Shown here in pieces: positions 11,267-32,000 of a stretch of DNA of 32,000 nucleotides. This DNA is from Aciduliprofundum boonei T469. GTDB lineage: Archaea > Thermoplasmatota > Thermoplasmata > Thermoplasmatales > Aciduliprofundaceae. Below the pieces are notes generated by a model. That model searched no databases. It worked only from the letters and a program-made list of their open reading frames with translations, and had not been told where the DNA came from. The number at the start of each line of letters is the position of its first letter. Within the stretch, counting starts at the first letter, position 1. Location of the stretch: NCBI RefSeq assembly GCF_000025665.1, contig NC_013926.1:360001-392000 (forward strand). Reading direction: 5' to 3'. The position numbers and the translations under genes are program-made.

Positions 11267-11270
11267 CTGA

Positions 11271-12398: not shown

Positions 12399-12892
12399 TC
12401 TTTTTCACCCCCCTCATCTATAAGGGGCACGCTTTCATATTTCTCCCTCGCATATTTTACTGTGTCAAAATCCTTCCGCATGGGTGGCATCTCATTCCAA
12501 TCTTCTAAGATGAACTCACCCAATCTATCATTACCCTCGAATTCCACTCCGAACATTTCATAAATCTCCCTCTCATATGTTTCAATCTGAGGGAACAGAT
12601 GCCTCAGAGTTCTATATTTTGGCTCATTTCTCGGCAAAAATATACTTAAAAATACATCCTCGCTATCTTCATAACTAAAAAGATGATACACGAGCTCAAA
12701 TTTTTCATCCTTTATCCAGTCAATGCAACTTAAAGCTACAAAGTGGTTAAAACCACTATTTTTGAATTTGATTATAGCATCCTCAAGCTTCTCGGGTTTC
12801 ACCTCTGCCTTGTATCTTGGAAGAGTATTTCCCTTCACCTTTAGCTTTTCAAATTCCACTCCGAGCTCTTTGAATATCTGCTCGGCCTTCAT
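12395..12892 (-). CDS. NuoC-like subunit (MbxK-like)
   Basis: 165 aa with NuoC-like blocks (ERExYDxFG-like: YEREIYEMFGVEFEGN). ATGA overlaps on both sides. Confidence 0.8.
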   Translation of the reverse strand: MKAEQIFKELGVEFEKLKVKGNTLPRYKAEVKPEKLEDAIIKFKNSGFNHFVALSCIDWIKDEKFELVYHLFSYEDSEDVFLSIFLPRNEPKYRTLRHLFPQIETYEREIYEMFGVEFEGNDRLGEFILEDWNEMPPMRKDFDTVKYAREKYESVPLIDEGGEKE

Positions 12893-16207: not shown

Positions 16208-16208
16208 T

Positions 16209-17627
16209 TTAGGCACCTCCTGCTATAAATGCACTCACATGTTGCAATACAGCAAGTATGGGCTTTGGATATATGCCAATAAGCACTATCAATATAGCCA
16301 AGAGTATCAAGGGTATATATGTAGCCGCATCTGGCCTTATTACCTTATTACCCTTCTCGAACACTATTTTTATGAATCTTGCATAATAGGCAACCTCCAC
16401 AATACTAGCAGCCAAGAAAAGTGCAATGATAGCATAGTAACCCTGTGAAAATCCACCCATAAGAATGAAGAATTTACCGTAGAACCCTGCAAATGGTGGC
16501 ATACCCATTATGGAGAGAGCACCTATCAATAAAGGTATCCCAATTAACGGGTTTCTTGCCATACCCTTCATATCCTCTATTTTATTGCTTTTAGCCGCAT
16601 AAATCAGAAAACCGGCAGCTATGAACAGCAATGCCTTTCCAAGAGCATGGGCAATCATTTGATAAAACGCACCCTCAACTGCAAGGGTTGTGCCTATTCC
16701 TAAGCCCATTATTATCATACCCATTTGCCCAATGGAAGAGTAAGCCAGCATCTTCTTTAGATTCTTTTGAGTATATGCTATAATTTCCCCAAAGAATACA
16801 GTGAGAAGACCCATTATTACGACAAACCATAGGAAATTCGTGAATGAAAACATTGTAAATATAACCCTTGCCAAGGCAAATATGCCTGCTTTAGCGGGTA
16901 GCGAGGCAAAAGCTGCACTTATGGGATGCGGTGCACCATCGTATGCATCTGGAACCCATGTGTTTAAAGGAAACATCTCAGCTTCAACACCGAATCCAAG
17001 GAATAATGATGTGAATGCAATAATTTTCACATAAGGGTCCATTGTACCTATCCTCGCTGCAATGTCCAGCATATTAAGTGTTCTCAGCTGTGAGTATATC
17101 AAAGTTATACCTATAAGAACGAAGGTACTTCCTATGGAGCCGATAATCACATACTTCATGGCACCCATGAATCCCTCCTTATCTTTGTTATAAGCAGCAA
17201 GACCGTAGGAGGCTATGGAAGTTACCTCCAAGAACACAAATAGATTGAAAAGATCTCCCGTAAGAACCATGCCCGTAGAGCCCATCACCAATAGGAGATA
17301 GAGCATGGAATATTTCACTATGGGCTCTTTTTCAACTTTTAGGTTATAAATTGATATTATGAACGCCACAATGTTGATTATCAGTGCAATTATCGCACCC
17401 AATGGCCCTACCATCAAAACTATGCCAAGAGGGGGTTGAAAACCTCCAATTATATCAAAGATCGGATGCTGAAGTGCCTCCATAAGTATGAATCCCGCAA
17501 GTGTGGCATTTAGAGCCGTAGCAAATATGACTAAATACCTGACCCATTTTTTACTCCAAAGACCTATGATTGGAGAGAGAAATGCGAATAGGAGCGGAAA
17601 TGCTATCAAGAGCACAGGCCTAATCAT
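16209..17627 (-). CDS. MrpD/NuoN-type antiporter-like subunit (MbxH-like)
   Basis: 472 aa, polytopic, with blocks WVPDAYDGAP, AYSSIGQMGMI and HALGKALLFIAAG. ATGA overlap upstream. Confidence 0.8.
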   Translation of the reverse strand: MIRPVLLIAFPLLFAFLSPIIGLWSKKWVRYLVIFATALNATLAGFILMEALQHPIFDIIGGFQPPLGIVLMVGPLGAIIALIINIVAFIISIYNLKVEKEPIVKYSMLYLLLVMGSTGMVLTGDLFNLFVFLEVTSIASYGLAAYNKDKEGFMGAMKYVIIGSIGSTFVLIGITLIYSQLRTLNMLDIAARIGTMDPYVKIIAFTSLFLGFGVEAEMFPLNTWVPDAYDGAPHPISAAFASLPAKAGIFALARVIFTMFSFTNFLWFVVIMGLLTVFFGEIIAYTQKNLKKMLAYSSIGQMGMIIMGLGIGTTLAVEGAFYQMIAHALGKALLFIAAGFLIYAAKSNKIEDMKGMARNPLIGIPLLIGALSIMGMPPFAGFYGKFFILMGGFSQGYYAIIALFLAASIVEVAYYARFIKIVFEKGNKVIRPDAATYIPLILLAILIVLIGIYPKPILAVLQHVSAFIAGGA

Positions 17628-17959
17628 TCTTCCACCCCCATCAGCTCGTCAAGTTCTAAAGTTCCAGTTTTCTTGTAAATTCCAATTGCTATAGATAATG
17701 CTAGAGCCATGACGGATACGCCTATAACGATAGCCGTGAGCACTAAAGCTTGAGGAATCGGGTCAACATAAGGGCCAGGTACATTCTCTATAGGTGCAGT
17801 AGCATTCTTCACATAGCCCACAGAGATGAGAAGGAGATTCACTCCAGTATCCATTATGTCCAAACCAATTATTATCTTTATGAGATTTTTCTTTGCTATG
17901 ACTATATAAATCCCAATAACAACGAGTGCTATTGAACCAAGGTAGTAATATGGGATCAC
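17624..17959 (-). CDS. MrpC/NuoK-like small membrane subunit (MbxG-like)
   Basis: 111 aa with 3 TM helices at the MnhC/NuoK-like position. GTGA overlap with the upstream gene. Confidence 0.75.
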   Translation of the reverse strand: MIPYYYLGSIALVVIGIYIVIAKKNLIKIIIGLDIMDTGVNLLLISVGYVKNATAPIENVPGPYVDPIPQALVLTAIVIGVSVMALALSIAIGIYKKTGTLELDELMGVEE

Positions 17960-18684
17960 TCTCTCACCCCCATCATTGCATCCACGATACCCGTCAGCTC
18001 GCTTCCCACTTTAACGCCTATGGCAACATAGATAACGGGGATCACGCCAGCACTGAATAGATATGTTGGCAGCCCAAAGGGCAAGAAGTTATAGAGGAAA
18101 TAACCCGCTATTGCAAGCCCAAGAAGACCTACAATAACAAAGGTTAATCCTGCAAGACTTTCCGAGACATTCAACCTCTTATGCTCCGCATGGAATTTTG
18201 GATACGCTAGATAGAGAAGGAGAAAAGATGATGCAATTATTGCACCACCCGGGAATCCTCCTCCTGGAGTGAGGTGTCCGTGTATAAATATATAAGCACC
18301 AAATAAGATAATGAAACCAAACAGAAGCTTAGAGCCAGTTTCCACAACAGCATTAGACCTCTTCACCTTTTTCTTTGCCTTATTCTCAACATACATTAAG
18401 GAGCCAACACCTGTGGAGGCCAAAAATAGCACAGTTACTTCACCCAAGGTATCAAAACCTCTGTAATCTACCACAACCGCAGTTACCATATTCGTAGCAC
18501 CAGTATCTTTCTTACCATAAGTTAGGTAATGTTGTGGAAGAGACATATTTGATGTTTGATTTTCAATAGGATTGTAATAATGAGGATATTTACTCATCTG
18601 CTCTCCAAACGGTATCTTTGCAAAGGCCATGGCAAACACAACGAATAATAGAATCGCAATGATAATAGCTAATACTCTCTTCAT
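17956..18684 (-). CDS. MrpB-like membrane subunit (MbxF-like)
   Basis: Polytopic. MnhB-like core (VTAVVVDYRGFDTLGEVTVLF). ATG 18684 forms an ATGA overlap and is preceded by AGGTGGGAG; the ORF track GTG is at 18693. Confidence 0.75.
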   Translation of the reverse strand: MKRVLAIIIAILLFVVFAMAFAKIPFGEQMSKYPHYYNPIENQTSNMSLPQHYLTYGKKDTGATNMVTAVVVDYRGFDTLGEVTVLFLASTGVGSLMYVENKAKKKVKRSNAVVETGSKLLFGFIILFGAYIFIHGHLTPGGGFPGGAIIASSFLLLYLAYPKFHAEHKRLNVSESLAGLTFVIVGLLGLAIAGYFLYNFLPFGLPTYLFSAGVIPVIYVAIGVKVGSELTGIVDAMMGVRE

Positions 18685-18929
18685 TTCTCCCACCTCTTTG
18701 TGCTTCTAATTGCAAATATTATAACAGCCATACTCAAAGCCGCACCTATGGCAGCTTCTGTGATTGCAACATCTGGAGCCTGCAGTATGTAAAATAGTAT
18801 GGAAACTATTAAACTCATCACTCCCAAAGCAATAGCAGCCGAGAGCAAATCCTTCATTTCAGCGGCTATTATTGCTGTTATTATTGTTATGATTATTAGG
18901 ATTAAGGATACTATAGTAAATAGATCCAA
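18681..18929 (-). CDS. Small MrpA-C-terminal/MnhB-related membrane subunit (DUF4040-like, MbxD-like)
   Basis: Hydrophobic, 82 aa. TTG 18929 sits immediately after the MrpG-like stop and is preceded by GGAGGAGG. The longer ORF-track version (to 19028) would overlap the upstream gene by 98 nt. Confidence 0.6.
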   Translation of the reverse strand: MDLFTIVSLILIIITIITAIIAAEMKDLLSAAIALGVMSLIVSILFYILQAPDVAITEAAIGAALSMAVIIFAIRSTKRWEK

Positions 18930-18930
18930 T

Positions 18931-19278
18931 TTAATCCTCCTCCTTTTCTTCCTTGTACTTATCAACCACGCTACCTTCCCAAAGCTTAACTCCATGCTTA
19001 TAACTGGCCCTAGCCAAGGCGCTCGCACCTATTGGCGCAGTCAAAACTATGAACGCTGCAATAATCAAACTCTTAGGAAGCCACCCAAGATCTATTAATC
19101 CTATACCAACGAGTACGCTTAAAGCTCCGAGAGTGGTCGCTTTTGTTGCTGTTTGCATCCTATTGTAAACATCAGGCATGCGAAGCAAACCTATAGAGGC
19201 AAGCAGGAGAAAGAATGTCCCTATGCTGATAAATATATAACCTATTATCTGCAAAATTAAAAGTATCACATTGCTCAT
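18931..19278 (-). CDS. MrpG-like subunit (MbxC-like)
   Basis: 115 aa, 3 TM helices, MnhG-like (LLRMPDVYNRMQTATKATTLG). ATGA overlap upstream. Confidence 0.75.
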   Translation of the reverse strand: MSNVILLILQIIGYIFISIGTFFLLLASIGLLRMPDVYNRMQTATKATTLGALSVLVGIGLIDLGWLPKSLIIAAFIVLTAPIGASALARASYKHGVKLWEGSVVDKYKEEKEED

Positions 19279-19541
19279 AGGCCTCCCTCCAGATACCTTG
19301 CAAGTGCTATTACGCCTACAAAAGCCAAAATGCCATACACGAGTGCCACATCCATATATATGAACCTCTGGAAGAAATATCCAAGGAGAACCAAGAGCAC
19401 TATGGTTATGTTAGTCAATATATCCAACGCTACTGCCCTATCTGGCGCTGTGGGGCCCTTTACAAGGCGAATTATTGTTAAAAATGCTGCCACGGAAATT
19501 AATGCTATGAATATTGCACATATATCAATTGAACAGTTCAT
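19275..19541 (-). CDS. MrpF-like subunit (MbxB-like)
   Basis: 88 aa, 3 TM helices, MnhF-like (RLVKGPTAPDRAVALD). ATGA overlaps on both sides. Confidence 0.75.
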   Translation of the reverse strand: MNCSIDICAIFIALISVAAFLTIIRLVKGPTAPDRAVALDILTNITIVLLVLLGYFFQRFIYMDVALVYGILAFVGVIALARYLEGGL

Positions 19542-20062
19542 TCAAACACCTCTCTTAGGTATTTCTCAAAATCCCCTTTTATAATATCTCCAGCTTCCTT
19601 CTCATCCTCGCTGTGCACATAGATCCAGTGAATGTAATATTTATCATCAATAATCTGCATAGTCATAGTACCTGGAGTGAGAGTTATTGAATTTGCCAAA
19701 GCCAGCTTCCCGACAGGATTTTTCAAATCCGTCCTTATCCTCACAATACCGGGCTTTATAGGCCTCTTAGGACTCAAAACCCTATAAGCAACATCAAAAT
19801 TTGCTTTTATCATAGCCCAAATAAAAACAGGGATATATTTCAAAAACCACCAAACTCTATGGGGGGATAAATTATACAAACCCCTTTCGGATAAATGCTG
19901 ATAACTGAAAGCTGCTGCAATAAGTGATAGAACAATACCTGCTGTAAACTCCTGCAAAAATTGCTCCTCTTTAATCCCAGGTGAAAATGTGAATCCACAC
20001 CAAATTATGATGAATATCAGGAAGGCATACAGGAACCGGTTCGCATTGCTTACCTTTTTCAA
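19538..20062 (-). CDS. MrpE-like subunit (MbxA-like), first gene of the cluster
   Basis: MnhE-like core (VAYRVLSPKRPIKPGIVRI...LANSITLTPGT). The start is uncertain. The ORF track gives TTG 20185, only 8 nt from tRNA-Pro. I prefer TTG 20062, which is preceded by GAAGGTGGT and has a TATA-like TTAAATATAAAA about 45 nt upstream. Confidence 0.65.
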   Translation of the reverse strand: MKKVSNANRFLYAFLIFIIIWCGFTFSPGIKEEQFLQEFTAGIVLSLIAAAFSYQHLSERGLYNLSPHRVWWFLKYIPVFIWAMIKANFDVAYRVLSPKRPIKPGIVRIRTDLKNPVGKLALANSITLTPGTMTMQIIDDKYYIHWIYVHSEDEKEAGDIIKGDFEKYLREVFE

Positions 20063-20106
20063 GTTACCACCTTCTTTGAGGCTTTTTTCTCTCTGGTAAT
20101 CTTGAG

Positions 20107-20118
20107 TTTTATATTTAA
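20107..20118 (-). promoter_or_regulatory. Candidate TATA box for the Mbx-like operon
   Basis: The minus strand reads TTAAATATAAAA, about 45 nt upstream of the proposed TTG 20062 start. Assigned by eye only. Confidence 0.3.
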
Positions 20119-20192
20119 TCTTATTTGTTCGATTTCCGAACCATTGAAAAGGAAAAATTAATTTATTAGTTTGTTCATTCACCAATCCCCAT

Positions 20193-20313
20193 GGGGCCGT
20201 GGGGTAGCTTGGTTATCCTACCGGCTTTGGGAGAGGAACCACCAGCGGGTTCCTTTACCTCCTGCAACCCTCCAGAAAAGCCGGTGACTCCGGTTCAAAT
20301 CCGGGCGGCCCCA
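20193..20313 (+). tRNA. tRNA-Pro(UGG) with a 47-nt intron (20232..20278) at 37/38; its 3' end is the casposon target
   Basis: Acceptor GGGGCCG/CGGCCCC, T-arm TCCGG-TTCAAAT-CCGGG, anticodon stem CCGGC/GCCGG, loop UU-UGG-G|intron|A. CCA is not encoded. Confidence 0.85.
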
Positions 20314-20323
20314 CTACGAGGAG
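20309..20323. repeat. Target-site duplication, left copy (CCCCACTACGAGGAG)
   Basis: Identical 15-mer at 29400..29414. The left copy includes the last 5 nt of tRNA-Pro. Confidence 0.85.
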
Positions 20324-20359
20324 GGGGATATATATACATCCCCTCTTAAGTTCCCTTTT
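20324..20359. repeat. Left terminal inverted repeat
   Basis: GGGGATATATATACATCCCCTCTTAAGTTCCCTTTT matches the reverse complement of 29364..29399 at 35 of 36 positions. Confidence 0.9.
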
Positions 20360-23058
20360 CACATCACTCCTGATTTGTAGATCTGATATAGGATTGGATA
20401 CAACTTCCTTTTTCTCTTGGGATACTTTCCACGCTTTAGGTTTGTTTTAAGCTTCTTTATTGCCCTTAATGAGACTTTGACATCAGGATATTTTGCATTA
20501 ATATACTCTAATATTTTCTTAGGTGAAAGACTCGATATAAAATCTTTGAAATCTTCCATTTTCTCATATTCTATGTATTCAGGTATACCCATTATCATAT
20601 TTTTCTCTAGCTCGTTAGACTCCTTCCCTATGTATTTTATGTGGTCAACTGTTATTTGTCTCCTATTCAACAATCCAACATCCCCTTCATACTTTCCGTC
20701 ATGGTGGTTAAAGTAGTCTTCAAGAACTTTAGAAATGGGTTTCCAGTATTCTTTTGTATCTAAGGGTAGATCTTGAGAGCTCAGACCTGACTTGTAGTCA
20801 ATAAACGGTCGGTATGGTATAAGCTCAAACTTTTTATCTTGAGGGCTTATGAAGGGCATAATTGGTATTACTGGCTCACCATTCTCGGAGCGGTAGGCAG
20901 TCCCAACAGTAACAAAATTGAAAGGTTTTATCTTCTTTGCTAGTTCTTTATTATTGTTCAGATAGTCAAACCTTTTAAGAACCTGTGGGGTTGTGACTGT
21001 TAGTTGAGATACAGCATACTTGTGGTGGTATTTTTCAATTATCTCTTCTCTACTATCAGGGTGATAGTGCATTTTTAGAATATCTTCCCAAACCTCTTTT
21101 GGGTCTATGCCTATTATATGACCTAAGCCGTGAGAAGACTCTTTTAATATCTCTATTTTTTCACCATTAATACGATACAGGCAATACCTCTTAGCAGAGA
21201 TGCCATAAAATAGCACATTATCTAATGGTATGCCCTCTTCGTTGTCCTCGATTTTAAACATGTCAACACTATAAGAATAGGGGTTTAATTTTTCAAAGAG
21301 CTCCTTGACCTCTCTAACTTTTTCAGGTTTTACAAATATGCTGTCTGTATCCATGTAGGCATAGTACCCATTATTTGAAGCAATACTTTCAGCAATAGCC
21401 AAGATAAGCCTTGCACCAGAGGTTAGGAATATGGCTATTATTGGGTTATATGCCTTTCCAATGCTCTCTATTTTGCCTACCTTAGTGTTAAACTCTTCAA
21501 GACCATAGACGGTGATCTCCTTATCTTTTACTTTTTCACTATTTACCTCTATAAATATTCCATAAGAAGAAGCATTTGCTATTATCTTAAACTCATTCTG
21601 GATAACTTTTAACTTCTCAATATCTCCAATGCCTCTCTTTATTTGGTCTTTGTACTCAAGCCTCTTCTCTATGATCTTCTTTATGAAATTCTCTTCAGGG
21701 GCTATTGTAATACCGTTGATCTCTATAGCTCTTAAACTCTGTCTACCTACTGGCTCAAATGTCAAAGAATCTATTATTTCAGGGGCTTTTCCAGTTAAAA
21801 TTTTAGATGAAATTACATCTTCTATAGTGTACCATATAGGTCTTTGAGAAGTCAGGTAGTTAATTCCTATATTGTAGACATCTCCACGGTACTTCATCCT
21901 TATGGGTAATATGTCCCTATCAGGTCTTATTAATACAATACTCCTCATTAAAGGGTCTCTCCATACCTCTTTATCCTGTAGGCTTTCAACACTTATCTTT
22001 GATAGGAATGATTTGACCTCACCTTTGGTAGCTCTTACTCTTATAGACCTAGCCTTAAGAATCTCATCTAGCTTGAGTAGTATGAAAAGGGTGGGGTACA
22101 TAGAGGTAAAGTCAAGGTATGTAACGGGAATAGGGCTCTTCCTTATCTTACACTCAGTCCTACCACCATAATAAGTAGTCATAGCAAAGCCCAGTACCTC
22201 TTTAGGAAAATCAGGGTTAAGCTCCATAAATGGACTTATACCCATCTTATTGAGGTAGTACTTACCTATTGATGCTGGGGAATATAGTAGGTTTTCTTCC
22301 ATGTCTATATTGAACATCTCTTTTCTCTCCATAAGTTTAAGGTAAAGTTCAAAGGTCACTTGCACATCGTTTAAGTTGTACTCTATGTAGTCTTTATTTA
22401 TTGCTCCATGCCTCTCAGGGTGTGTCTTATAGTGCTCACACTTGAACTCTTTGGAGGCTGACTCTAAAGTATGTCTCTTGTTTGTTAGGGCAAATGCAAA
22501 AGTCCTCAGATCTACAAAATACCCTTCGTAGTGCGTGTATTTTCTCTTGCTCTTCTTTCTGAGTGGTCTTAAAAACTTTATAAAAGACTTTGTGGAGTCC
22601 AATGCTCTTATCATGACCCTTGGGTTTCTAGGATCCTTTGAGAGTGTAAAAGAAAAAGCCCTCGGGTCTTTCCTAGATATTGTGTAGTCAATAGCCAGTC
22701 TAGACAAGTCAAAAGGTAAGTTGAACCCTATACACTTTGCCCTTGCTTGGTAAACATAGGGGTAAAAGACCTTTTCAACAAACCTAGTCTTTGGTATGAC
22801 CTTAATACTGTGGCTATCTCCAAACTCTATTATTTTCTCCTTTTCAGACTCTTTTAGGTTATCTTCATAGAAAATATACCTCTCAATAACCTTATTGTTC
22901 CTTGCAATTAAACTTGATCCGAATAGTAGGTTTTGGTACTCATCAGTAGTTGTCTCGGTATCGAAAACAAGCAATAGTGAGGGGTTAGGTGATATTTTCT
23001 CTTTATACCCACTCCTATTATCACTATGAGAAAAACACCTTAGAGCAATATCACTCAT
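20359..23058 (-). CDS. polB: Family-B DNA polymerase (casposon PolB)
   Basis: Exo I FDTET, Exo II FNLPFD, Exo III YNLND. Pol A YLDFTSMYP, Pol B KIIANASSYG, Pol C YMDTDS, plus KRY. ATG 23058 is preceded by GGAGGT; the ORF track TTG is at 23073. Confidence 0.9.
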   Translation of the reverse strand: MSDIALRCFSHSDNRSGYKEKISPNPSLLLVFDTETTTDEYQNLLFGSSLIARNNKVIERYIFYEDNLKESEKEKIIEFGDSHSIKVIPKTRFVEKVFYPYVYQARAKCIGFNLPFDLSRLAIDYTISRKDPRAFSFTLSKDPRNPRVMIRALDSTKSFIKFLRPLRKKSKRKYTHYEGYFVDLRTFAFALTNKRHTLESASKEFKCEHYKTHPERHGAINKDYIEYNLNDVQVTFELYLKLMERKEMFNIDMEENLLYSPASIGKYYLNKMGISPFMELNPDFPKEVLGFAMTTYYGGRTECKIRKSPIPVTYLDFTSMYPTLFILLKLDEILKARSIRVRATKGEVKSFLSKISVESLQDKEVWRDPLMRSIVLIRPDRDILPIRMKYRGDVYNIGINYLTSQRPIWYTIEDVISSKILTGKAPEIIDSLTFEPVGRQSLRAIEINGITIAPEENFIKKIIEKRLEYKDQIKRGIGDIEKLKVIQNEFKIIANASSYGIFIEVNSEKVKDKEITVYGLEEFNTKVGKIESIGKAYNPIIAIFLTSGARLILAIAESIASNNGYYAYMDTDSIFVKPEKVREVKELFEKLNPYSYSVDMFKIEDNEEGIPLDNVLFYGISAKRYCLYRINGEKIEILKESSHGLGHIIGIDPKEVWEDILKMHYHPDSREEIIEKYHHKYAVSQLTVTTPQVLKRFDYLNNNKELAKKIKPFNFVTVGTAYRSENGEPVIPIMPFISPQDKKFELIPYRPFIDYKSGLSSQDLPLDTKEYWKPISKVLEDYFNHHDGKYEGDVGLLNRRQITVDHIKYIGKESNELEKNMIMGIPEYIEYEKMEDFKDFISSLSPKKILEYINAKYPDVKVSLRAIKKLKTNLKRGKYPKRKRKLYPILYQIYKSGVM

Positions 23059-23485
23059 ACTTATTACCTCCAAGGGGGAAACACCTTAGTGCAATTTCCC
23101 TAGCAATCCTCTCATAAAAGAAGTTTTGGGTCTTGTAAGCCTTTAACTCTAAAATATCTATGAGTCCCCTCAAAAAGAACTTGTGTCTCTTTTCTGTAGG
23201 TAATCCTCTCTTTAACCATTCTTCGCCCCATAGGTTCTGTTTAGCACTTAAATGTTGGTGACATTCTTTACAGACTAAAACGACCCTGCTGTCATGCTTC
23301 CTACCTGCAATATGGTGTCTTTCAAGACCTTTTGTAGCTCCGCATATCTCACAGTACTTTGGTAGCTCTCTCTCATACTCAAATAAAGAGAGAACCCAGT
23401 TCGAAGCTTTAGAATACTCTTTTTCAATAGTATCTCTAACATCCATAAGGATCTCATCAATGCATAGTGGAGACTGAGAATACAT
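23051..23485 (-). CDS. HNH endonuclease
   Basis: CEICGATKGLERHHIAGRKHDSRVVLVCKECHQHL is CxxC...HH...CxxCH, a zinc-stabilised HNH core. Its 3' end overlaps the polB start by 8 nt. Confidence 0.8.
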   Translation of the reverse strand: MYSQSPLCIDEILMDVRDTIEKEYSKASNWVLSLFEYERELPKYCEICGATKGLERHHIAGRKHDSRVVLVCKECHQHLSAKQNLWGEEWLKRGLPTEKRHKFFLRGLIDILELKAYKTQNFFYERIAREIALRCFPLGGNKYE

Positions 23486-23491
23486 AGGGAC

Positions 23492-24001
23492 TCACCAATT
23501 GTATATCTCATAGAACTCGGGTTCTTCTATAGACCTTGCAATATCTACCAGTTTTTCAGGGTCAGTCTCTAGCTTGTGTATGTTACCCTGAGCATCTTTT
23601 ATTTTTATGTTTCTAAACCTCTCAACAGCTGTAATATCACCAGTCTCTAGAAATATTCTTACTGCATTGTGGTACTTACCTATTATAGAAGCATACCTTG
23701 AGTCATTCACCTCTATGCTAATTTTCTTACCATTTTCATTTATGTCCATTACTCTAGAGATTTTGTCATACCTCTTTGCTATCCACCTACCGTTAACCTT
23801 CTTAAAAGCATTAGTGCTCTTAATCACGGTGTTTGGAGATATACCTACCTTCTTACATGCACTTGACAAAGACTCCCCTTTCCTTACTCTAGCAAGTACT
23901 TCCAAGCTCTTTTCCCTTAGCATTTTCTCTCGAGGGCTCAATAAGCTCCAAGGCTTCTTGAAGACCCTCTCTTTTCCAGACATACTACTTTTCTCTCTCA
24001 T
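23492..24001 (-). CDS. HTH DNA-binding protein (casposon-encoded)
   Basis: HTH-like LSSACKKVGISPNTVIKS. The start is ambiguous: ATG 24001 has TTTATAGTATAGG directly upstream (possibly leaderless), and alternatives are 23983 and 24064. The ORF-track start 24118 would overlap the divergent gene. Confidence 0.55.
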   Translation of the reverse strand: MREKSSMSGKERVFKKPWSLLSPREKMLREKSLEVLARVRKGESLSSACKKVGISPNTVIKSTNAFKKVNGRWIAKRYDKISRVMDINENGKKISIEVNDSRYASIIGKYHNAVRIFLETGDITAVERFRNIKIKDAQGNIHKLETDPEKLVDIARSIEEPEFYEIYNW

Positions 24002-24129
24002 ACCTATACTATAAACATTGGGGATATATAATATAGTGAATTCACTACACTTTACTTTATCCATAATGTTAAATATCTTTGAAAAACTTGAAAATACACG
24101 GAAAATATTATATTGCATTGTTCACTATC
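24002..24129. promoter_or_regulatory. Divergent promoter/operator region inside the casposon
   Basis: AT-rich spacer between divergent HTH genes. Contains GGGGATATATAATATA (24020..24035, the same first 11 nt as the TIR tip) and the perfect palindrome GTGAATTCAC (24036..24045). Confidence 0.4.
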
Positions 24130-25170
24130 ATGAGTATGGAAAAGTTCCAATCAGCTACTAGGATAATAGCACATAGAAGGAAACAAAAGACAAGAGAAAA
24201 AGTTCTTGGAATTATAAAATCACATGGAAAAATAAGGTTCAAAGAGCTTATGCAAGAAAGTGGGTTGTCTAATAGGTGGCTCTCTATAACTCTCCATGAA
24301 CTCCTTGAGGAGGGTCTGATTAAGCAAGTAATTGGGGATATAGAGGTTAAGGGTAAAAATGGGGAGCCTGTGTTAAAGAAGAGGGCTAAGTTATACACAA
24401 TCACTAAAAAAGGTGATAATGTTTACAGTAATGCATGGTATATATTACACAAACTAGAAGATTTGAGAGAAAGAGGTTCTACATATTATCATAACGATTT
24501 TGAACTATTTGGAGTTGATATAATAATGAATGGGGTAGAAGGTGATGCATTTAATACATTACCTACAATTCCAGAATATGAATTTTTCATAATGCGTAGC
24601 ATATTTAGAAAAGTGGGTGCATACGATATTAAAAACCTCTCAGGTGAAGTGATTATTGCACTAAACTTTGATATGCATAAATTAATTGGAGGTATTTTAG
24701 AAATTAAAGACTTCATTAAGATGTTAATTAAAAATGCCGATGTTTTTGAGAGTGATCTTTTTAGGGATATGGGTTGGAGAGATAAAATTCACAAGTTTAT
24801 ACATCTCCTTAATTATTCCAAATTACTAGTTGATAATAAGGATATAATTGAAAGAATAACGAAAAATGGGAATAAGTTATTTTTGTCCTACAAGCCATTA
24901 ATAATTTCGAGTTATTATCGTACTGGAAAAGGTCTTGATGAAGAAATACTAGAAAAGGTCAAAGAGCATATTGAAAATGATACAAATCCCTTAGAGGATG
25001 AAAATATTAAGCATAAATTGATTAGAAAATCTGGTAATATTACCGAATTTCCCATTTATGATTATTTAAATTTACTTAAGGTATTTAATCTCACTAATTA
25101 CCCATTTCTACAAAAAATAGAGTTAGTGAATGAAAAAATAACTAGAACAATAGAGAATGGAGGTATCTAA
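24130..25170 (+). CDS. Winged-HTH protein with a large C-terminal domain of unknown function (casposon-encoded)
   Basis: N-terminal wHTH-like KVLGIIKSHGKIRFKELMQESGLSNRWLSITLHELLEEGLIKQV. ATG 24130 is preferred over TTG 24079. Its stop is immediately followed by the cas1 ATG. Confidence 0.6.
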   Translation: MSMEKFQSATRIIAHRRKQKTREKVLGIIKSHGKIRFKELMQESGLSNRWLSITLHELLEEGLIKQVIGDIEVKGKNGEPVLKKRAKLYTITKKGDNVYSNAWYILHKLEDLRERGSTYYHNDFELFGVDIIMNGVEGDAFNTLPTIPEYEFFIMRSIFRKVGAYDIKNLSGEVIIALNFDMHKLIGGILEIKDFIKMLIKNADVFESDLFRDMGWRDKIHKFIHLLNYSKLLVDNKDIIERITKNGNKLFLSYKPLIISSYYRTGKGLDEEILEKVKEHIENDTNPLEDENIKHKLIRKSGNITEFPIYDYLNLLKVFNLTNYPFLQKIELVNEKITRTIENGGI

Positions 25171-26385
25171 ATGAACCCTCTTTTAGTTAGTGGTTATGGA
25201 ATTTCCATAAATGTGGATAAAAGGAAACTAGTAATAAGGGAAAAAGGTAAACAAGTTCACGAATTTTACCCCCACCAGATAAACTACGATTCCCTAATAA
25301 TTGAAGGTTATTACGGGAATATTTCCTTTGAAGCTATAAGATGGTTAATGAAGCACAATATAACGGTATCCGTTTTAAACTGGAACGGAAACCTACTTTC
25401 CGTATTTTTGCCTAAGGAACCCATTAACGGAAAACTGAAAATAAGGCAGTATGAAATATACATTAACGAAAAAGAGAGACTGAAAATTGCGGAAAAAATA
25501 TTAGAGGAAAAAATAAGGAAATCGGAAAATATGCTATATGAATTAAGTGAGTATTATCCAGAAATTGAGCACATTAAAGTAAAAAAGAGGATAGAAAAAG
25601 AGGAAAAACTAAAAAGGGACATGGAATTAAAAGAGGAAAATAAACCGAAATTATCCTATTTATTGATGTATGAGGGAAGGGTTGCGCAAATATACTGGAA
25701 AGAGTTATCAAAGATTTTCAATAAACTGTACCCTGAATTTAACTTCACTTCAAGGAGTACTAAGTCTTATTCTTGGAACATGAACGCTTCAGATGAAATA
25801 AATGCACTTTTAAACTATTCTTACGCACTACTTGAGTCTATGATAAGAAAGCATATCAATGCGGTAGGTCTAGACCCATCGATTGGTTTTTTGCATGAAC
25901 TAGCTTCCTCTAAGACCCCTCTTGTATATGATCTTCAAGAGCTTTTTAGGTGGGTATCTGACCTATCCGTTATCCAACTTCTAGAGGATAAGAAGTTAAA
26001 GAAATCATCTTTTATTGTAACTGAGAACTACCATATACGCCTTAAGCCCCAGACCTCAAAGCTCCTTGTTGAGAAGTTCAAGCTCAATATGAACAAGAAA
26101 TATGAAGTTGGTAAAAAGAGGTACACTCTGGAAACAATTATGTTCAATACAGTTCGATCCTTGGGTAAATATATCCTTGGGAAATCTAACACCTTGAAAT
26201 TTGAGATTCCATATATCCGTATAGAACATATAGAACCTGAATTAACAGAGAAAATACTTAAAATGACACCAGAAGAGAGGAAAGCACGGGGAATAAACAA
26301 GTCTACACTCTGGTACCAAAAGAAGAAACTGGCTCAAGGTAAGAGTATAAAAGTGTATGGGAAGGTAAAGAGTAAATTAAAATAG
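25171..26385 (+). CDS. cas1: Cas1 homolog (casposase) with a C-terminal HTH extension
   Basis: Cas1 signature blocks: LMYEGRVAQIYW (catalytic Glu), INALLNYSYALLES, GFLHE (His), LVYDLQELFRW (Asp/Glu). C-terminal TPEERKARGINKSTLWYQKKKL is HTH-like. GGAGGT lies 8 nt upstream. Confidence 0.9.
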   Translation: MNPLLVSGYGISINVDKRKLVIREKGKQVHEFYPHQINYDSLIIEGYYGNISFEAIRWLMKHNITVSVLNWNGNLLSVFLPKEPINGKLKIRQYEIYINEKERLKIAEKILEEKIRKSENMLYELSEYYPEIEHIKVKKRIEKEEKLKRDMELKEENKPKLSYLLMYEGRVAQIYWKELSKIFNKLYPEFNFTSRSTKSYSWNMNASDEINALLNYSYALLESMIRKHINAVGLDPSIGFLHELASSKTPLVYDLQELFRWVSDLSVIQLLEDKKLKKSSFIVTENYHIRLKPQTSKLLVEKFKLNMNKKYEVGKKRYTLETIMFNTVRSLGKYILGKSNTLKFEIPYIRIEHIEPELTEKILKMTPEERKARGINKSTLWYQKKKLAQGKSIKVYGKVKSKLK

Positions 26386-26407
26386 ATTTAAGTATTATAT
26401 CATTAAG

Positions 26408-29311
26408 ATGTCAGAAAAAAGAGGAAAGGTCACTGAAAGATCTTTATATCCAGCCATTATAGATCTATTAAAAAAAAGAGGTGCCGAAGGAGTCGAGGAG
26501 ATTAAATACGAATCTCAGCCAGATATAATCGCTGATTGGTTAGGAGCAAGATGGATTATTAGCATAAAAATAGGGAATTATACAAAAAGTATGTTCTTTA
26601 AAAATGCCATGATACAATATGCAAGGCATATAATTGATTCGGGTCTTAAATATGGAATGATTATATTTTTACCAGAGAGTATTAGAAATATTTCTGTAGA
26701 AGAGAAAGCTCTTTATAATGCTATCAGAAATAAAAAAGCTTATGTTATTTTAGATACTCCTGAAACTCAGAAAGAATTTTTAGATACCTTACCCAATATT
26801 TTTGAGGAAGTAGAAAGAATTTTAAAAGAGAAAATCAAATCCACATATAGTTTAAAAACGGTAATTACCCTTTTAAAAGAGCAAATCAATGATATTATGA
26901 AAGAGACTAGAATTACAGAGAAGGAAATGACCAATATAATTACAAGTGATGAATTGTTTCTTGGGATTAGTGCATCAAAACATAAGGATATAAAAGTAAT
27001 AAAGTTTATTTCGACATATATTTTTTTAACACAGGTTCTATTTGCTAGGTTATACGGTGTAGAACATCCAGCAATTTTAAGCGGTTTTGATATTAGAAAT
27101 ATAACTAAAGAAGGTATAAGAGAACTCTTTAGACGAATTACTGAGATAAATTATAGACCAATATATAAATTTGATATACTGGATACCATACCTGAACATT
27201 ATATAAAAGATACTTTCACTTTGATATGGAATTTAAAGATAGAAAATATTAGGTTTGAACTCCCAGGAAGATTATTTCATGAGCTTATGCCAAAAGAAAT
27301 TAAAAAAATGCTTGCTGCTTTTTATACTAGACCAATAGCTGCAGAAATTTTATCTTGTGTTACAATTAACAATGCTGAAGAAGTCGTATTTGATCCTGCT
27401 TGCGGTTCTGGTACGATACTGACTGCAGCATATAGAAGAAAACGAGAATTATGGAATAAACAAGAAGATCCTCACAAACTCTTTTGTGAAGAACAAATTT
27501 ATGGAACAGATATAATGCCATTTGCCGTAAATCTAACCACAGCTAATTTAGCATCTCTTAATCCTAAAATTACAATAGAAAAAATGAACATAGCAAGAGC
27601 TGATAGTCTTAAACTTGAACTAAACGTGCCTATTAAAAATGGTTTATCTAAATTAGAAAGATATGGTATACCTATCTCATCTAATATTAAAAGTAAGAAT
27701 ATGCAAGGTGATGAATATGATATGGTTCTAGACCTAATGGATGTTGTTCTAATGAATCCCCCATTTACAAAAATTGAAAGGGGAGTAAAGAAATATATAA
27801 AAATAGAGCGTTTCAAATCACGAGTTGGAGGAGAAATAGGATTATGGGGGCATTTTATAGCTTTGGCAGATATGATTCTTAAGCCAAATGGTATGTTTGG
27901 AGGGGTTATTCCTATTAATATATTGAGGGGAAGAGAAAGTGAAAAAGTAAGAAAAATAGTTTTTGAAGAGTGGTTACCTCTATATGTAATAAAATCAACA
28001 ATGAATTATGGTTTTTCTGAATCTTCTGAATATAGAGACATTCTAATAATAGCTAAAAAAACCAAATCAAAACCTATTAATCATAAAGTTAAGTTTGTTT
28101 TAATTAAAAAAGATCTAAATTCATTAAGCTTTAAAGATGTTAAGCGGATATGTGATAGGATTAAAACCTCATCAAAGTTAAATGACCCTCTACTAGAAAT
28201 AAGATCGTATTCTATGGAAGATATAAAAAAGCATTTTGTTAATATGATGTGGTTTATTAGTGGGTCATCTTTTGAATGGAAAGATAATCTTTTAAACATA
28301 ATAAGAAAATCCGAAATGGTGTTAGATTATTTCCCACATAGTGGTAATGGATATTTTATGGAAGGATATAGACCCGTACCAAAAGGTGTTTCTAAATTCA
28401 TGTTTATTACAAGACCTATTAATGAAAATAGGATCGATAAAGCCTTTTTAGTTCTCATCAAAGAAGATGATAAAAAAATATTCGCTGAAACAAAAATGAT
28501 GTATGAAATGAGTAAACTCAATGAACATTCAAAGAGTAGCATTTTCGATTTTGATAAAGATAAGTTTTTACTCACTATTAGAACACCCGTTGGATTGAAT
28601 ACAATGGATATTACAAATAAACATGATTATATTGCTATATCTCCTTATAAGGACATAGAAAAAATCCAGAGACTTTCAGGATTTAATAGTTCATTAAAAA
28701 ATAGTTATTGGAATAATATTAAAAAACAAATGAATAATATAAAAACTAAAATTATTGTAAGCCGTCGCATAAACCCTTATTCTCCAAATACACATTTGAT
28801 AGCTTTCTTCTCTGAAAATGATATTTTTCCTTCCAATCAAGTAAATGTGGTTGTAGAACCAGATCCAAGGAAGGCAAAAGCTGTGACCGTTTTATTAAAT
28901 TCAATATTTTTCTTGGCTTATTTCTTTAATCTTAAGGAAGAGACTACTGGGAGATATATAGATATTCGTTTTTATGATTTATACTCAATGAAACTGTATC
29001 CTACTACTAACACACAAATTGATAATTTAGTAAAAGTATTTAATAAATTTAAAGATGTAAATTTTCCTCCCTTAAGAGAGCAGCTTGATGAGCATTTTAC
29101 TGAAAGATATTCTGTATTCTGGAGCTCAGAAAGAAAAAAAATTAAGCCTTTGATACCTGTTGATTCTATAAAGCCGCATCCTGTACGACTAAAATTCGAT
29201 AAAGCCATAATAAAAGCTTTAAACTTATCAATTTCGCATGAAGAACTATTGCAAGCTTATAATGCAATAATAAACGATATGATTATTACCCGAGGATTAA
29301 AAAAAGATTGA
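26408..29311 (+). CDS. Large N6-adenine DNA methyltransferase, gamma-class, with N- and C-terminal extensions (type IIG/IIL-like single-chain R-M candidate)
   Basis: Motif I VFDPACGSGTILTAA is followed by motif IV LMNPPFTK. 967 aa. The N-terminal ~100 aa has a PD...(S)xK-like segment (QPDIIADWLGARWIISIK). The long C-terminal region could be a target-recognition domain. Confidence 0.75.
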   Translation: MSEKRGKVTERSLYPAIIDLLKKRGAEGVEEIKYESQPDIIADWLGARWIISIKIGNYTKSMFFKNAMIQYARHIIDSGLKYGMIIFLPESIRNISVEEKALYNAIRNKKAYVILDTPETQKEFLDTLPNIFEEVERILKEKIKSTYSLKTVITLLKEQINDIMKETRITEKEMTNIITSDELFLGISASKHKDIKVIKFISTYIFLTQVLFARLYGVEHPAILSGFDIRNITKEGIRELFRRITEINYRPIYKFDILDTIPEHYIKDTFTLIWNLKIENIRFELPGRLFHELMPKEIKKMLAAFYTRPIAAEILSCVTINNAEEVVFDPACGSGTILTAAYRRKRELWNKQEDPHKLFCEEQIYGTDIMPFAVNLTTANLASLNPKITIEKMNIARADSLKLELNVPIKNGLSKLERYGIPISSNIKSKNMQGDEYDMVLDLMDVVLMNPPFTKIERGVKKYIKIERFKSRVGGEIGLWGHFIALADMILKPNGMFGGVIPINILRGRESEKVRKIVFEEWLPLYVIKSTMNYGFSESSEYRDILIIAKKTKSKPINHKVKFVLIKKDLNSLSFKDVKRICDRIKTSSKLNDPLLEIRSYSMEDIKKHFVNMMWFISGSSFEWKDNLLNIIRKSEMVLDYFPHSGNGYFMEGYRPVPKGVSKFMFITRPINENRIDKAFLVLIKEDDKKIFAETKMMYEMSKLNEHSKSSIFDFDKDKFLLTIRTPVGLNTMDITNKHDYIAISPYKDIEKIQRLSGFNSSLKNSYWNNIKKQMNNIKTKIIVSRRINPYSPNTHLIAFFSENDIFPSNQVNVVVEPDPRKAKAVTVLLNSIFFLAYFFNLKEETTGRYIDIRFYDLYSMKLYPTTNTQIDNLVKVFNKFKDVNFPPLREQLDEHFTERYSVFWSSERKKIKPLIPVDSIKPHPVRLKFDKAIIKALNLSISHEELLQAYNAIINDMIITRGLKKD

Positions 29312-29329
29312 GTTCAATTAGTTCAAGTC

Positions 29330-29342
29330 TTTTTATTTTTTT
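29330..29342 (+). terminator. Oligo-T tract, candidate archaeal terminator after the methyltransferase gene
   Basis: TTTTTATTTTTTT lies 19 nt after the stop codon, just inside the right TIR. Confidence 0.35.
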
Positions 29343-29363
29343 GTGTTTAAATAGATATTTATA

Positions 29364-29399
29364 AAAAGGGAACTTAAGAGGGGATATATATATATCCCC
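29364..29399. repeat. Right terminal inverted repeat
   Basis: AAAAGGGAACTTAAGAGGGGATATATATATATCCCC. The terminal 20 nt (29380..29399) form a perfect palindrome. Confidence 0.9.
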
Positions 29400-29414
29400 C
29401 CCCACTACGAGGAG
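29400..29414. repeat. Target-site duplication, right copy (CCCCACTACGAGGAG)
   Basis: Identical to 20309..20323. Confidence 0.85.
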
Positions 29415-29487
29415 ACACCTACGATTAAGTCCCCCTTTGGGACTAACTCGCAGCTTTTGCTGCTCGTTTCCCCCTCTACCCTCTTCC

Positions 29488-29580
29488 CTAAGGGATAGGT
29501 GCTTTACCTCCCAAAGAAGAAAAGTGTTTTATCCCAAAAGAAAAAAGTTCCTTTAAAAAGCAGCTTTACCCCCAGAGAAA
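29488..29580 (+). repeat. Degenerate tandem units related to the tRNA-intron core (GGTGCTTTACC...AAAG-AAAA)
   Basis: Successive units: GGTGCTTTACCTCCCAAAGAAGAAAA / GTGTTTTATCCCAAAAGAAAAAA / GTTCCTTTAAAAA / GCAGCTTTACCCCCAGAGAAAA. Confidence 0.4.
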
Positions 29581-29646
29581 ATTTGCTTTTTCTATTCTAG
29601 AAATTAAAGAAAAAAAGCAATATATTCAAAAATATTTCAGATACAT

Positions 29647-31020
29647 ATGAAAAGATTTCCAAAGGTGAAAGTTATCACACTTATAGTGGTTTTGCTCTTA
29701 TTATCTATTACTGCAGGATATTATATTTTAAACACCAACAAAATAAAAATTTTGGAGTGTGGGTATTTCTTTGGTGCCAATCCCAAAAATCCTAATCAAA
29801 CAATAACCTACATTTATTTGAAATTATCTGCGCCTGTTCATAATGGGGATATTATCCATATTTACAAAAATGAAAGCGATTTTTACTATAACTTGGTGAC
29901 TTGGAAGGTTAATCGCACACAGGATGGCAAAACCAATATAACCATACCGCTTGATATGCTTGATAATCTCAATGGCTCCATGGACATTTATATAAAGAGA
30001 GGTAGTTCTTATCTTTACAGGGGAAAAATATCGTTTTCTGTACACCCCCACCTTGATGTATCCGTGACAAATATACATGTTCGTCCTGTAAGTGCCAAAT
30101 ACGCGTACATAACAAATGTGCATCTCTTAATAAAGTCTCAAAGACCAATTTATATATGTGGATTGAATTTTACAGTGTTTAATATGAATATCTACAAGGA
30201 GGTTAATAGTGTGATTTATGGTGTAAAGAAGGTTAATATAAGTGTGTCTCCTGGAAAGGTTGTACAACTTGTGCAAAAGGGCATCGTGCCTGTGAAGATT
30301 ACACTTCTCTATCCAGCATATCCCGATAATCTTGATAAGCCAGAGAAATATCCCGTTGATAGTGAATGTGTAATCAATTTCACTTACCCTCCTGTTGTTA
30401 TAACTAATTTCTCGATTTATAATTCTTCGTCATATCCGTCATATATCTTCCTTTTATTTCAACTCAGCAGATTTCCTGATTATCCGGTCCACATTATAGT
30501 TTACAAACTCAATGGTACAATTATAGGAGAAGGATATGGTGTTGGAATAGGTAAAAATGATACTGTATTCATATCCGTACCCTTCCCCCCTAATTATAAT
30601 TTCAACGGCACATATGTTGCAGTTTTAGAAGACAATTACGGATTTGCCCTTAATAGCCTTACATTTACTCTCAAATCTGGGCCACTTAAGTTAATTTCTC
30701 ACGAAGAAATATTTAATGAAACAAATGACCCCAATAAAGTGATTTTGAGATCACTAGTCCTTAAACTGGAGAATCTTGGAAATTTCAACTTCTACATAAC
30801 ACACTATGAATATAAGATAAGTTTTATTTCAAATGGCACCGTTGCTGCATCAGGGGACTATACTTGGTTCTATCAAGCGATACCCCCCAGAAAATTTACT
30901 AATGTAACCCTTCCATTTTATGTGCACCTCATTAAAGGAAAAACTTATAAAATTTCCCTTACATTTGAAGGTGGCAACAAGAATGTCAAATGCACGATTG
31001 ATTACACTTTTAAAGCGTAA
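29647..31020 (+). CDS. Secreted or surface protein with an N-terminal signal/anchor and many N-glycosylation sequons
   Basis: N-terminal KVKVITLIVVLLLLSITAGYY. I count 16 N-x-S/T sequons in 457 aa. Beta-rich composition and no recognisable catalytic motif. Confidence 0.6.
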   Translation: MKRFPKVKVITLIVVLLLLSITAGYYILNTNKIKILECGYFFGANPKNPNQTITYIYLKLSAPVHNGDIIHIYKNESDFYYNLVTWKVNRTQDGKTNITIPLDMLDNLNGSMDIYIKRGSSYLYRGKISFSVHPHLDVSVTNIHVRPVSAKYAYITNVHLLIKSQRPIYICGLNFTVFNMNIYKEVNSVIYGVKKVNISVSPGKVVQLVQKGIVPVKITLLYPAYPDNLDKPEKYPVDSECVINFTYPPVVITNFSIYNSSSYPSYIFLLFQLSRFPDYPVHIIVYKLNGTIIGEGYGVGIGKNDTVFISVPFPPNYNFNGTYVAVLEDNYGFALNSLTFTLKSGPLKLISHEEIFNETNDPNKVILRSLVLKLENLGNFNFYITHYEYKISFISNGTVAASGDYTWFYQAIPPRKFTNVTLPFYVHLIKGKTYKISLTFEGGNKNVKCTIDYTFKA

Positions 31021-31142
31021 TTGTAAGAATGCGCTCCAGCACTTGAAAACTACAAGTTTTATTCATACAGGAGAAAGATTGAGGAGAATATTATTAGCTG
31101 CGTTCGCGGTTTCGGAGGAAATGAGGAAAATAGAAGAAAAGA

Positions 31143-32000
31143 TCATTCCATATGCTCTTTGAACCAATCAACTATCTCCTTCAATCTTATTTCTCTGTGC
31201 TTTGGCTTTCCACTGCGAGATAAATCGTGATTTTCGTGGGGAAATAGAACCATCTTTGTATCCACACCCTGCATCTTAAGGGCATAGAATAATTGATATG
31301 CTTCACTTATGGGGCATCTGTAATCCTCCTCGCTATGTATTATCAGCAGCGGAGTTTTTATATTCTTGGCATATTTCAATGGACTCATACTCCAATAATT
31401 CTCAAATCCTTCCCAGAGATCCTTACCGGCACCAATATAATCTTTGTTAAACCACGGCCCTATATCACTAGTGCCCCAGAAAGAGAGTTGGTTGCTTATG
31501 CTCCTCTGCGTAGCTGCAGCTCTGAATCTATCCGTATGCCCAACAATCCAGTTAGTCATAAATCCCCCATAAGAGCCTCCAGTAACAAATACCTTTTTCT
31601 TATCAATTGAATAATTCTCAAGCACAAAATCAAGAGCTTCCATCAAATCCTTGTAATCTCTATTTCCAAAATCACCTCTAATCTTCAAAGCAAATTCTTC
31701 AGAATAGCCAGATGAGCCACGGGGATTTGTGAAGATAACAGCAAATCCTTGAGAGAGGAAATAGTAGAACTCAAACATAAATGCATGGCCATAAGATGTT
31801 TTAGGTCCCCCATGAATCTCCAAAATAGCTGGATGTGGCCCTTTACCCTCTGGCAACAAGAGCCATCCCTCTACCTCTTCACCATCACTTACTTTCACTG
31901 TAAAATGCTCTCCTTTGGGCAATTTTAAGAACCTATTTAAATTGGTTATTCTTCTCTCTCTGTCCCTTTTTATAAAAACATCTGCAGGATGATTCATTTC
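31143..32000 (-). CDS. S9-family serine peptidase (prolyl oligopeptidase/acylaminoacyl-peptidase catalytic domain), possibly truncated by the window edge
   Basis: Nucleophile elbow GGSYGG, with downstream SEEDYRCP (Asp) and PHENHDL (His). There is an ATG at 31997, but the frame is still open to base 32000, so an upstream beta-propeller domain cannot be excluded. Confidence 0.8.
   Translation of the reverse strand, partial: EMNHPADVFIKRDRERRITNLNRFLKLPKGEHFTVKVSDGEEVEGWLLLPEGKGPHPAILEIHGGPKTSYGHAFMFEFYYFLSQGFAVIFTNPRGSSGYSEEFALKIRGDFGNRDYKDLMEALDFVLENYSIDKKKVFVTGGSYGGFMTNWIVGHTDRFRAAATQRSISNQLSFWGTSDIGPWFNKDYIGAGKDLWEGFENYWSMSPLKYAKNIKTPLLIIHSEEDYRCPISEAYQLFYALKMQGVDTKMVLFPHENHDLSRSGKPKHREIRLKEIVDWFKEHME

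Follow-up and report, generated by a model that had tools for sequence, protein, structure and literature searches.

Casposons are the proposed ancestors of the adaptation module of CRISPR systems, and the first casposase to be characterised biochemically came from the element AciBoo-C1 of Aciduliprofundum boonei T469. The first biochemical paper on this enzyme is reportedly that of Hickman and Dyda from 2015. Here we describe a stretch of 32,000 nucleotides of A. boonei T469 (contig NC_013926.1, positions 360,001 to 392,000 of the forward strand), which we call the window and number from its first letter. At 25171-26385 (+) it holds an open reading frame (ORF) for a 404-aa homologue of Cas1. 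We are virtually certain that window 20324-29399 is the 9,076-bp family-2 casposon AciBoo-C1, inserted at the 3' end of a tRNA-Pro(UGG) gene, and that this ORF is its casposase.

AciBoo-C1 was named by Krupovic et al. (2014), who placed it in family 2 (PMC4046053). Béguin et al. (2016) described a duplicated target, CCCCACTACGAGGAG, terminal inverted repeats (TIRs) of 36 bp and a target-site duplication (TSD) that overlaps tRNA-Pro by 5 bp. They found that the adjacent 18-bp TΨC-arm segment is needed for targeting, described the target as a tRNA-Pro with an intron, and mapped the genes as DNA polymerase (DNAP), HNH, helix-turn-helix (HTH), HTH, Cas1 and methyltransferase (MTase) (PMC5137440). 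In vitro, the A. boonei casposase, alone and without Cas2, integrates TIR-flanked mini-casposons as well as TIR-derived duplex or single-stranded oligonucleotides, and makes target duplications of 14-15 bp (PMC5137440, PMC6614799). It strongly prefers the native tRNA-Pro site, where the 15-bp segment and upstream leader residues are needed. The strictly required part of the TIR is its five 3'-terminal nucleotides, and single-stranded ends suffice (PMC5137440, PMC6614799).

MetMaz-C1 of Methanosarcina mazei, also a family-2 casposon, shares with AciBoo-C1 the insertion at the 3' end of a tRNA gene, a family-B DNA polymerase (PolB), an HNH gene and TIRs, and the two casposases align over their full length, C-terminal tail included (E 4.4e-75). 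MetMaz-C1 differs in its target (tRNA-Leu), its 14-bp TSD, its 31-bp TIRs and its cargo, an N6-adenine MTase being noted for AciBoo-C1 (PMC4046053); its excision and integration have been shown in vivo (PMC10359463). Family-1 casposons such as NitAR1-C1 of Candidatus Nitrosopumilus koreensis likewise combine a Cas1-family integrase with PolB, TIRs, a TSD and site-specific integration in vitro (PMC6614799), but their PolB is protein-primed, their casposase has no C-terminal HTH and they target the EF-2 gene at its 3' end (PMC4046053, PMC6614799). The Cas1-Cas2 integrase of CRISPR systems has the fold and the catalytic residues of the casposase, and its staggered integration also duplicates a repeat-sized segment beside a 'leader' (PMC5137440). 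In contrast to it, AciBoo-C1 has no Cas2, array or other cas genes in the window or the extended locus (for PADLOC, among the best 25 of 57 families). A tetramer with an extra C-terminal tail, the tetramer being taken from the M. mazei literature, here stands against the Cas1(4)-Cas2(2) complex of CRISPR adaptation.

Identity of the Element

The Cas1 homologue is an exact match to ADD08202.1 (WP_008082266.1, Aboo_0391) of A. boonei T469. The MTase encoded downstream is an exact match to ADD08203.1 of the same strain, and window 16161-32000 aligns with the A. boonei draft assembly GCA_000151085.1 at 100% identity. The Cas1, the MTase, the TSD, the TIRs, the tRNA overlap and the gene order are those of published AciBoo-C1 (Krupovic 2014; Hickman & Dyda 2015; Béguin 2016, 2019), with no difference detectable. 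Because every published feature equals the one measured here, the locus is a rediscovery of a published and experimentally characterised element. The observation is real, AciBoo-C1 and its casposase are already known in detail, and the identification is contradicted by nothing that we found.

A sequence-only reading of the window had picked out the stand-alone Cas1 and predicted that it would act as a transposon integrase rather than a spacer-acquisition enzyme. The literature bears this prediction out, as the exact protein is the published A. boonei casposase, which integrates TIR substrates in vitro (PMC5137440, PMC6614799). The PolB, the 36-nt TIRs, the 15-nt TSD, the tRNA-Pro target and the name AciBoo-C1 are evidence that the earlier reading did not contain.

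Boundaries and Target Site

A repeat search placed the two 36-nt TIRs at 20324-20359 (+) and 29364-29399 (+); they are the longest and best inverted repeat of the window. Their arms match at 35/36 positions. The terminal 20 nt of the right TIR form a perfect palindrome, and the terminal palindrome of the left TIR has one mismatch. The 15-nt sequence CCCCACTACGAGGAG is present exactly twice in the 32 kb, as the left TSD copy at 20309-20323 (+) and the right one at 29400-29414 (+), each flush with a TIR end.

The left copy overlaps the last 5 nt of the host tRNA-Pro(UGG) gene at 20193-20313 (+), whose 3' end is the integration target. This gene was detected with the Rfam tRNA model (45.5 bits, E 2.7e-07) and has an intron of ~48 nt. 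The anticodon loop reads UUUGGGA and, with the intron at the canonical 37/38 position, the anticodon is UGG; the assignment as tRNA-Pro uses this intron position together with the published label. An 18-bp stretch of the gene, CGGTTCAAATCCGGGCGG at 20291-20308 (+), encodes the TΨC arm when the sequence is read directly. It is the 'leader' which, together with the TSD segment, is reported to be required for site-specific integration (PMC5137440, PMC6614799).

Six genes lie between the TIRs, for PolB, an HNH-like protein, an HTH protein, a winged-HTH (wHTH) protein, Cas1 and an N6-adenine MTase. The five proteins of the family-2 core set (Cas1, PolB, HNH and two distinct HTH proteins) are all present in the published order, with the HNH and HTH calls individually weak. 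The features that define the casposon superfamily are found together here: a Cas1 with the full catalytic set, a PolB, bracketing TIRs, a flush TSD, and a cas1 gene without linked cas2, other cas genes or array in the window and ~10 kb further downstream. The position at the 3' end of a tRNA gene, with the TSD overlapping the last 5 nt of tRNA-Pro(UGG), is that of family 2. The GC content of the element is 33%, compared with 39.5% in the left host flank. The synteny of polB, HNH and HTH genes beside cas1 recurs in four unrelated loci of archaeal metagenome-assembled genomes (MAGs; L003-L006), and casposases with 49-63% identity were found in MAGs of Nitrosotalea, Nitrososphaera, Thermoplasmatota, Micrarchaeota, Nanoarchaeota and Methanocellaceae.

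The Casposase

The casposase starts with an ATG at 25171. Pfam Cas_Cas1 matches residues 4-303 of the 404-aa protein over profile positions 1-281/283 (E 5.1e-63), NCBIfam TIGR00287 (cas1) matches with E 4e-54, and many Cas1 models of PADLOC match as well. All motifs quoted in the sequence-only reading were found again: LMYEGRVAQIYW at residues 165-176 (holding E168), NALLNYSYALLES at 211-223, GFLHE at 239-243 (H242), LVYDLQELFRW at 251-261 (D254 and E257) and the tail string TPEERKARGINKSTLWYQKKKL at 366-387. The proposal that these blocks hold the Cas1 catalytic residues is upheld by alignment to Escherichia coli Cas1, the M. mazei casposase (6OPM) and Archaeoglobus fulgidus Cas1 (4N06). In an hhalign profile-profile alignment of the casposase and five relatives with Cas1 of E. 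coli K-12 (from NC_000913), H242, D254 and E257 fall on H208, D218 and D221. E168 is not covered by this local alignment; its counterpart in 6OPM and 4N06 is the conserved Glu. All four residues are invariant across the five casposase relatives. In E. coli Cas1, alanine substitution of E141, H208, D218 or D221 abolishes nuclease activity (PMC4046053). As judged from these alignments, the catalytic set of Cas1 is complete in the casposase. The best PDB match of the protein is 6OPM, over its full length (E 4.4e-75).

Behind the Cas1 domain lies a family-2-specific C-terminal tail of ~55 residues (~residues 350-404; 26218-26382, +), which is basic, conserved in relatives and predicted to be an HTH. 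The alignment with the M. mazei casposase extends to query residue 392, that is, into this tail. A C-terminal HTH is described as unique to family-2 casposases (PMC4046053). In the M. mazei enzyme, deletion of the tail inactivates the protein, and the tail is disordered in the crystal (6OPM). Of the 'basic HTH-like tail' of the sequence-only reading, the basic tail stands. The HTH does not find the same backing: Pfam detected no HTH in the tail, and a Foldseek search of the tail model against the PDB gave no significant match. That model, a single-sequence AlphaFold prediction, contains three short helices (Cas1 residues 356-363, 367-372 and 377-388), with a predicted local distance difference test (pLDDT) score of ~77 in the helical core and a mean of 58 overall. 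The Cas1 tail and the PolB C-terminus are reported in the literature to share an HTH; within AciBoo-C1, BLASTP of one against the other gave no significant similarity (E 0.49).

In a Thermoplasmatota MAG locus (L002), several extra copies of one segment lie downstream of the casposase gene, at 11149-11547, 14485-14883 and 15712-16038. The segment resembles the C-terminus of PolB (residues ~780-894) and also the tail of the casposase (residues 325-403). These copies could be HTH-tail modules that were repeated, or remnants of casposons in tandem.

Alternative Explanations

The Cas1 could in principle belong to a conventional CRISPR adaptation module whose cas2 and array lie outside the window. 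The protein scores above cut-off for generic Cas1 models, but it is below the cut-off of every subtype-specific Cas1 model, its closest structure is the casposase 6OPM, and its ORF sits within TIRs alongside a PolB gene. No CRISPR array was found in the 32-kb window by repeat search, Rfam or Tandem Repeats Finder (TRF). A PADLOC scan of the 37 ORFs of at least 60 aa gave, among the best 25 of 57 families, no cas-type matches other than Cas1 and weak, HTH-only matches to Csa3/CasR/CARF models. The seven Cas2-sized ORFs of the window match no Cas2 family in Pfam. The earlier statement that neither cas2 nor a repeat array occurs in the 32 kb agrees with these repeat, Rfam, TRF, Pfam and PADLOC searches (the last among the best 25 of 57 families). 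A cas2 or CRISPR locus just outside the window, which would have spoken against that reading, was sought as well, and gene calls over a further ~10 kb downstream contain no cas gene. The span free of cas genes and arrays reaches from 25 kb upstream to ~15 kb downstream of the casposase. Integration by the enzyme is also independent of Cas2 in vitro (PMC5137440, PMC6614799), and we regard a CRISPR origin of this Cas1 as extremely improbable. We give as little credence to the idea that an integrated virus or plasmid picked up cas1 by chance and relies on another integrase. Such an element might well carry a polymerase and a methyltransferase, and many integrated elements occupy tRNA genes. However, a tyrosine or serine recombinase is missing from the six ORFs, as are capsid and packaging genes, TIRs with a 15-nt TSD mark staggered transesterification and not att-site recombination, and Cas1 alone reproduces the junction in vitro (PMC5137440).

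The only live alternative is that the locus is a casposon by descent and now an immobile single-copy relic, whose genes persist or were co-opted by the host without transposition. A single copy is visible, the one TIR mismatch leaves the left terminus an imperfect palindrome, and three independent assemblies with contigs that reach an element end all show the occupied site. The literature reports no in vivo mobility for A. boonei. Against this, none of the six ORFs is disrupted and the catalytic residues are conserved, the TIRs match at 35/36 positions, the two TSD copies do not differ, the GC content remains distinct from that of the host, and the enzyme in purified form acts on these TIRs and on this target (PMC5137440). 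Intact ORFs, near-perfect TIRs, identical TSDs and foreign GC suggest a recent or still-competent insertion, and we consider a relic unlikely. Some observations do weigh against the assignment as a family-2 casposon. For excision and integration in vivo, the only report concerns the casposon of M. mazei (PMC10359463), and transposition of the A. boonei element in vivo has never been shown. The profile matches of the HNH-like protein are weak (IscB HNH region, E 0.0014; Pfam HNH and HNH_5, E ~0.05), and the HTH fold of the casposase tail is a prediction from a moderate-confidence model without a fold match.

To look beyond the occupied site, we searched metagenome contigs for the empty-site junction (GGCGGCCCCACTACGAGGAGACACC) and for the shared tRNA-plus-target sequence. 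Both were without match, the locus itself being absent from this collection. In the run SRR606249, the right TIR's last base, 29399, is also the end of contig L018, and a second contig, L024, begins at 29370. The 30-nt k-1 overlap of the two contigs points to a branch in the assembly graph and not to a coverage gap. On the left, contig L020 of this run passes through the junction without a break. We take SRR606249 to be a mock community that includes A. boonei DNA. A fold-back or assembly artefact is the likeliest cause of the branch, since the perfect 20-nt palindrome that terminates the right TIR ends at that very base. It is very unlikely that some molecules instead carry other sequence past the right terminus, for example because the casposon end was excised, circularised, closed as a hairpin or inserted again. 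If they did, this alternative right junction would be the first trace of casposon ends in vivo in A. boonei. Reads across the branch would contain the 30-mer GAACTTAAGAGGGGATATATATATATCCCC.

Mechanism

For integration, the casposase employs the element's 3'-OH ends in two transesterifications that are staggered by 15 bp, and its target consists of the 18-bp leader coding for the TΨC arm and the 15-bp CCCCACTACGAGGAG (PMC5137440, PMC6614799). According to the casposase literature, repair of the gaps after integration duplicates CCCCACTACGAGGAG and restores the tRNA's 3' end. The integration assays of PMC5137440, PMC6614799 and the M. mazei work used casposase alone. The active form of the M. 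mazei casposase (6OPM) is a tetramer with one catalytic monomer per dimer. By analogy, the A. boonei casposase would work as a dimer of dimers, hence a tetramer, that needs no Cas2, and its C-terminal tail would be essential. The element may be copied by its own PolB, as a 'self-synthesizing' casposon. The HNH protein and the two HTH proteins might have a part in excision, in the choice of target or in regulation. The wHTH gene may be translated together with cas1.

The wHTH Gene Upstream of cas1

The gene upstream of cas1 is an independent gene call at 24130-25170 (+) for a 346-aa protein with weak wHTH profile matches, and its stop abuts the casposase start. The TAA occupies 25168-25170 and the ATG of cas1 follows directly at 25171, just as the sequence-only reading had it. 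The hexamer GGAGGT, which had been placed inside the upstream gene, was located there at 25159-25164 (+), 6 nt upstream of the ATG; it resembles a Shine-Dalgarno sequence and presumably functions as one. From the TAA|ATG junction and this hexamer, translational coupling of the wHTH gene and cas1 is a reasonable inference.

That a gene abuts cas1 is clear, and its wHTH nature, claimed in the same reading, is weakly supported. The matches are to Pfam HTH_45 and HTH_24 (E 0.004-0.008), fall below the Pfam cut-offs and cover residues 37-118 of a 363-aa reading that starts at a TTG. The start of the gene is most likely 24130, as in the independent call (346 aa), and not the TTG at 24079. Two conserved HTH proteins are typical of family 2 (PMC4046053), with which a wHTH partner of cas1 is consistent. 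In the unrelated MAG locus L003, an ORF of 354 aa reaches 4 nt past the start of cas1, and its product is weakly homologous to the wHTH protein (24% identity over 301 aa, E 2e-4). Because this homologue also adjoins cas1, the abutting wHTH partner appears to be a conserved, fast-evolving casposon component.

The gene is called unevenly in existing data. In the NCBI draft assembly GCA_000151085.1 it is not called at all (L016 7823-9011, corresponding to window ~23983-25170), Logan assemblies call it as 346 and 343 aa, and the exact 363-aa translation from the TTG is absent from the protein collection searched.

Other Genes of the Element

The polB gene (20359-23058, -) encodes an 899-aa protein whose assignment comes from its motifs and from a five-genome profile. 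The family-B motifs stand in canonical order: Exo I FDTET, Exo II NLPFD, Exo III YNLND, A DFTSMYP, B KIIANASSYG, C YMDTDS and KxY. When a profile built from the protein and four homologues from other genomes was compared with the PDB, the 46 top-ranking matches were all family-B polymerases. The best had E 8e-6, in an alignment that runs through motifs A and B. The best of these matches are the RNA-primed PolB of Thermococcales and Pol alpha. Homologues of the protein match Pfam DNA_pol_B and DNA_pol_B_2, the latter in some of them. The PolB of family-2 casposons has been described as related to the RNA-primed archaeal PolB (PolB3) and not to the protein-primed PolB (PMC4046053). The single sequence, despite these textbook family-B motifs, had no match in Pfam, NCBIfam, PADLOC or a phmmer search of the PDB. 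An annotation pipeline would label this PolB 'hypothetical', and casposons would be hidden from domain-based scans. Homologues of polB are split across two reading frames in L005 (4680-7137) and L006 (6247-8791), which could reflect frameshifts, pseudogenes or MAG assembly errors.

The HNH-like nuclease (144 aa; 23051-23485, -) was assigned from a CxxC...HH...CxxCH pattern and from its conserved place next to polB in L003-L006; its counterpart is called HNH in the literature (PMC4046053). The conserved casposon HTH protein (190 aa by independent gene call; 23492-24064, -) has a weak match to HTH_23 (E 0.005) and homologues 36-59% identical at the same position in L003-L006. This gene and the wHTH gene are divergent across a 65-bp spacer (24065-24129).

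The cargo gene at 26408-29311 (+) encodes a 967-aa N6-adenine DNA MTase, with matches to Pfam N6_Mtase (E 4e-14) and Eco57I (E 7e-10) at residues 300-590. An N6 MTase is listed for AciBoo-C1 (PMC4046053). The MTase and type IIG restriction endonuclease (REase)-MTase models of PADLOC align to the MTase core alone. Family matches are limited to residues ~270-610 of the 967. The N-terminal ~270 aa have no family match and contain, by eye, a PD...SIK string near residues 38-54; a nuclease domain in this region was rejected, as neither profiles nor the PDB support it. In the C-terminal ~360 aa there is only a weak match to the TaqI_C specificity domain (E 0.009). A PADLOC match to 'REase_II' was also considered as a casposon gene and rejected, since none of the five casposon proteins rescanned (Cas1 excluded) matched. 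It is most likely the host HhH-GPD glycosylase at 6371-7006.

The GC content of the casposon is split. It is 37% in the polB/HNH/HTH half (20324-24078) and 30% in the wHTH/cas1/MTase half (24079-29399), with the host flank at 39.5%.

Host tRNAs, Repeats and Flank

The three tRNA genes of the window, at 7457-7578 (-), 10311-10437 (-) and 20193-20313 (+), all have introns of ~48-52 nt in the anticodon loop. Because all three carry introns, ARAGORN with default settings found no tRNAs; they were recovered with Rfam and with the intron mode of ARAGORN. The intron placement of ARAGORN was rejected for its implausible anticodons (Stop, Leu). The gene at 10311-10437 (-) is a tRNA-Arg(GCG) with a 52-nt intron. 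It is below the Rfam gathering threshold and was found by the intron mode alone.

The motif GGTGCTTTACCC has 10 matches at up to 2 mismatches, compared with 1.4 expected. It is exact in the introns of two of the tRNAs, at 7511-7522 (-) and 10370-10381 (-). Near-copies at 29498-29509 (+) and 29560-29571 (+) lie in the 230-bp spacer to the right of the right TSD, where no tRNA was detected.

The left host flank (10784-20185, -) is a long Mrp/Mbh-type operon for a membrane-bound hydrogenase or antiporter. Its genes include MnhE, MrpF, MnhG, MbhD/E, Proton_antipo_M, NADHdh and Complex1_30/49kDa, and it ends 8 nt before the tRNA-Pro gene.

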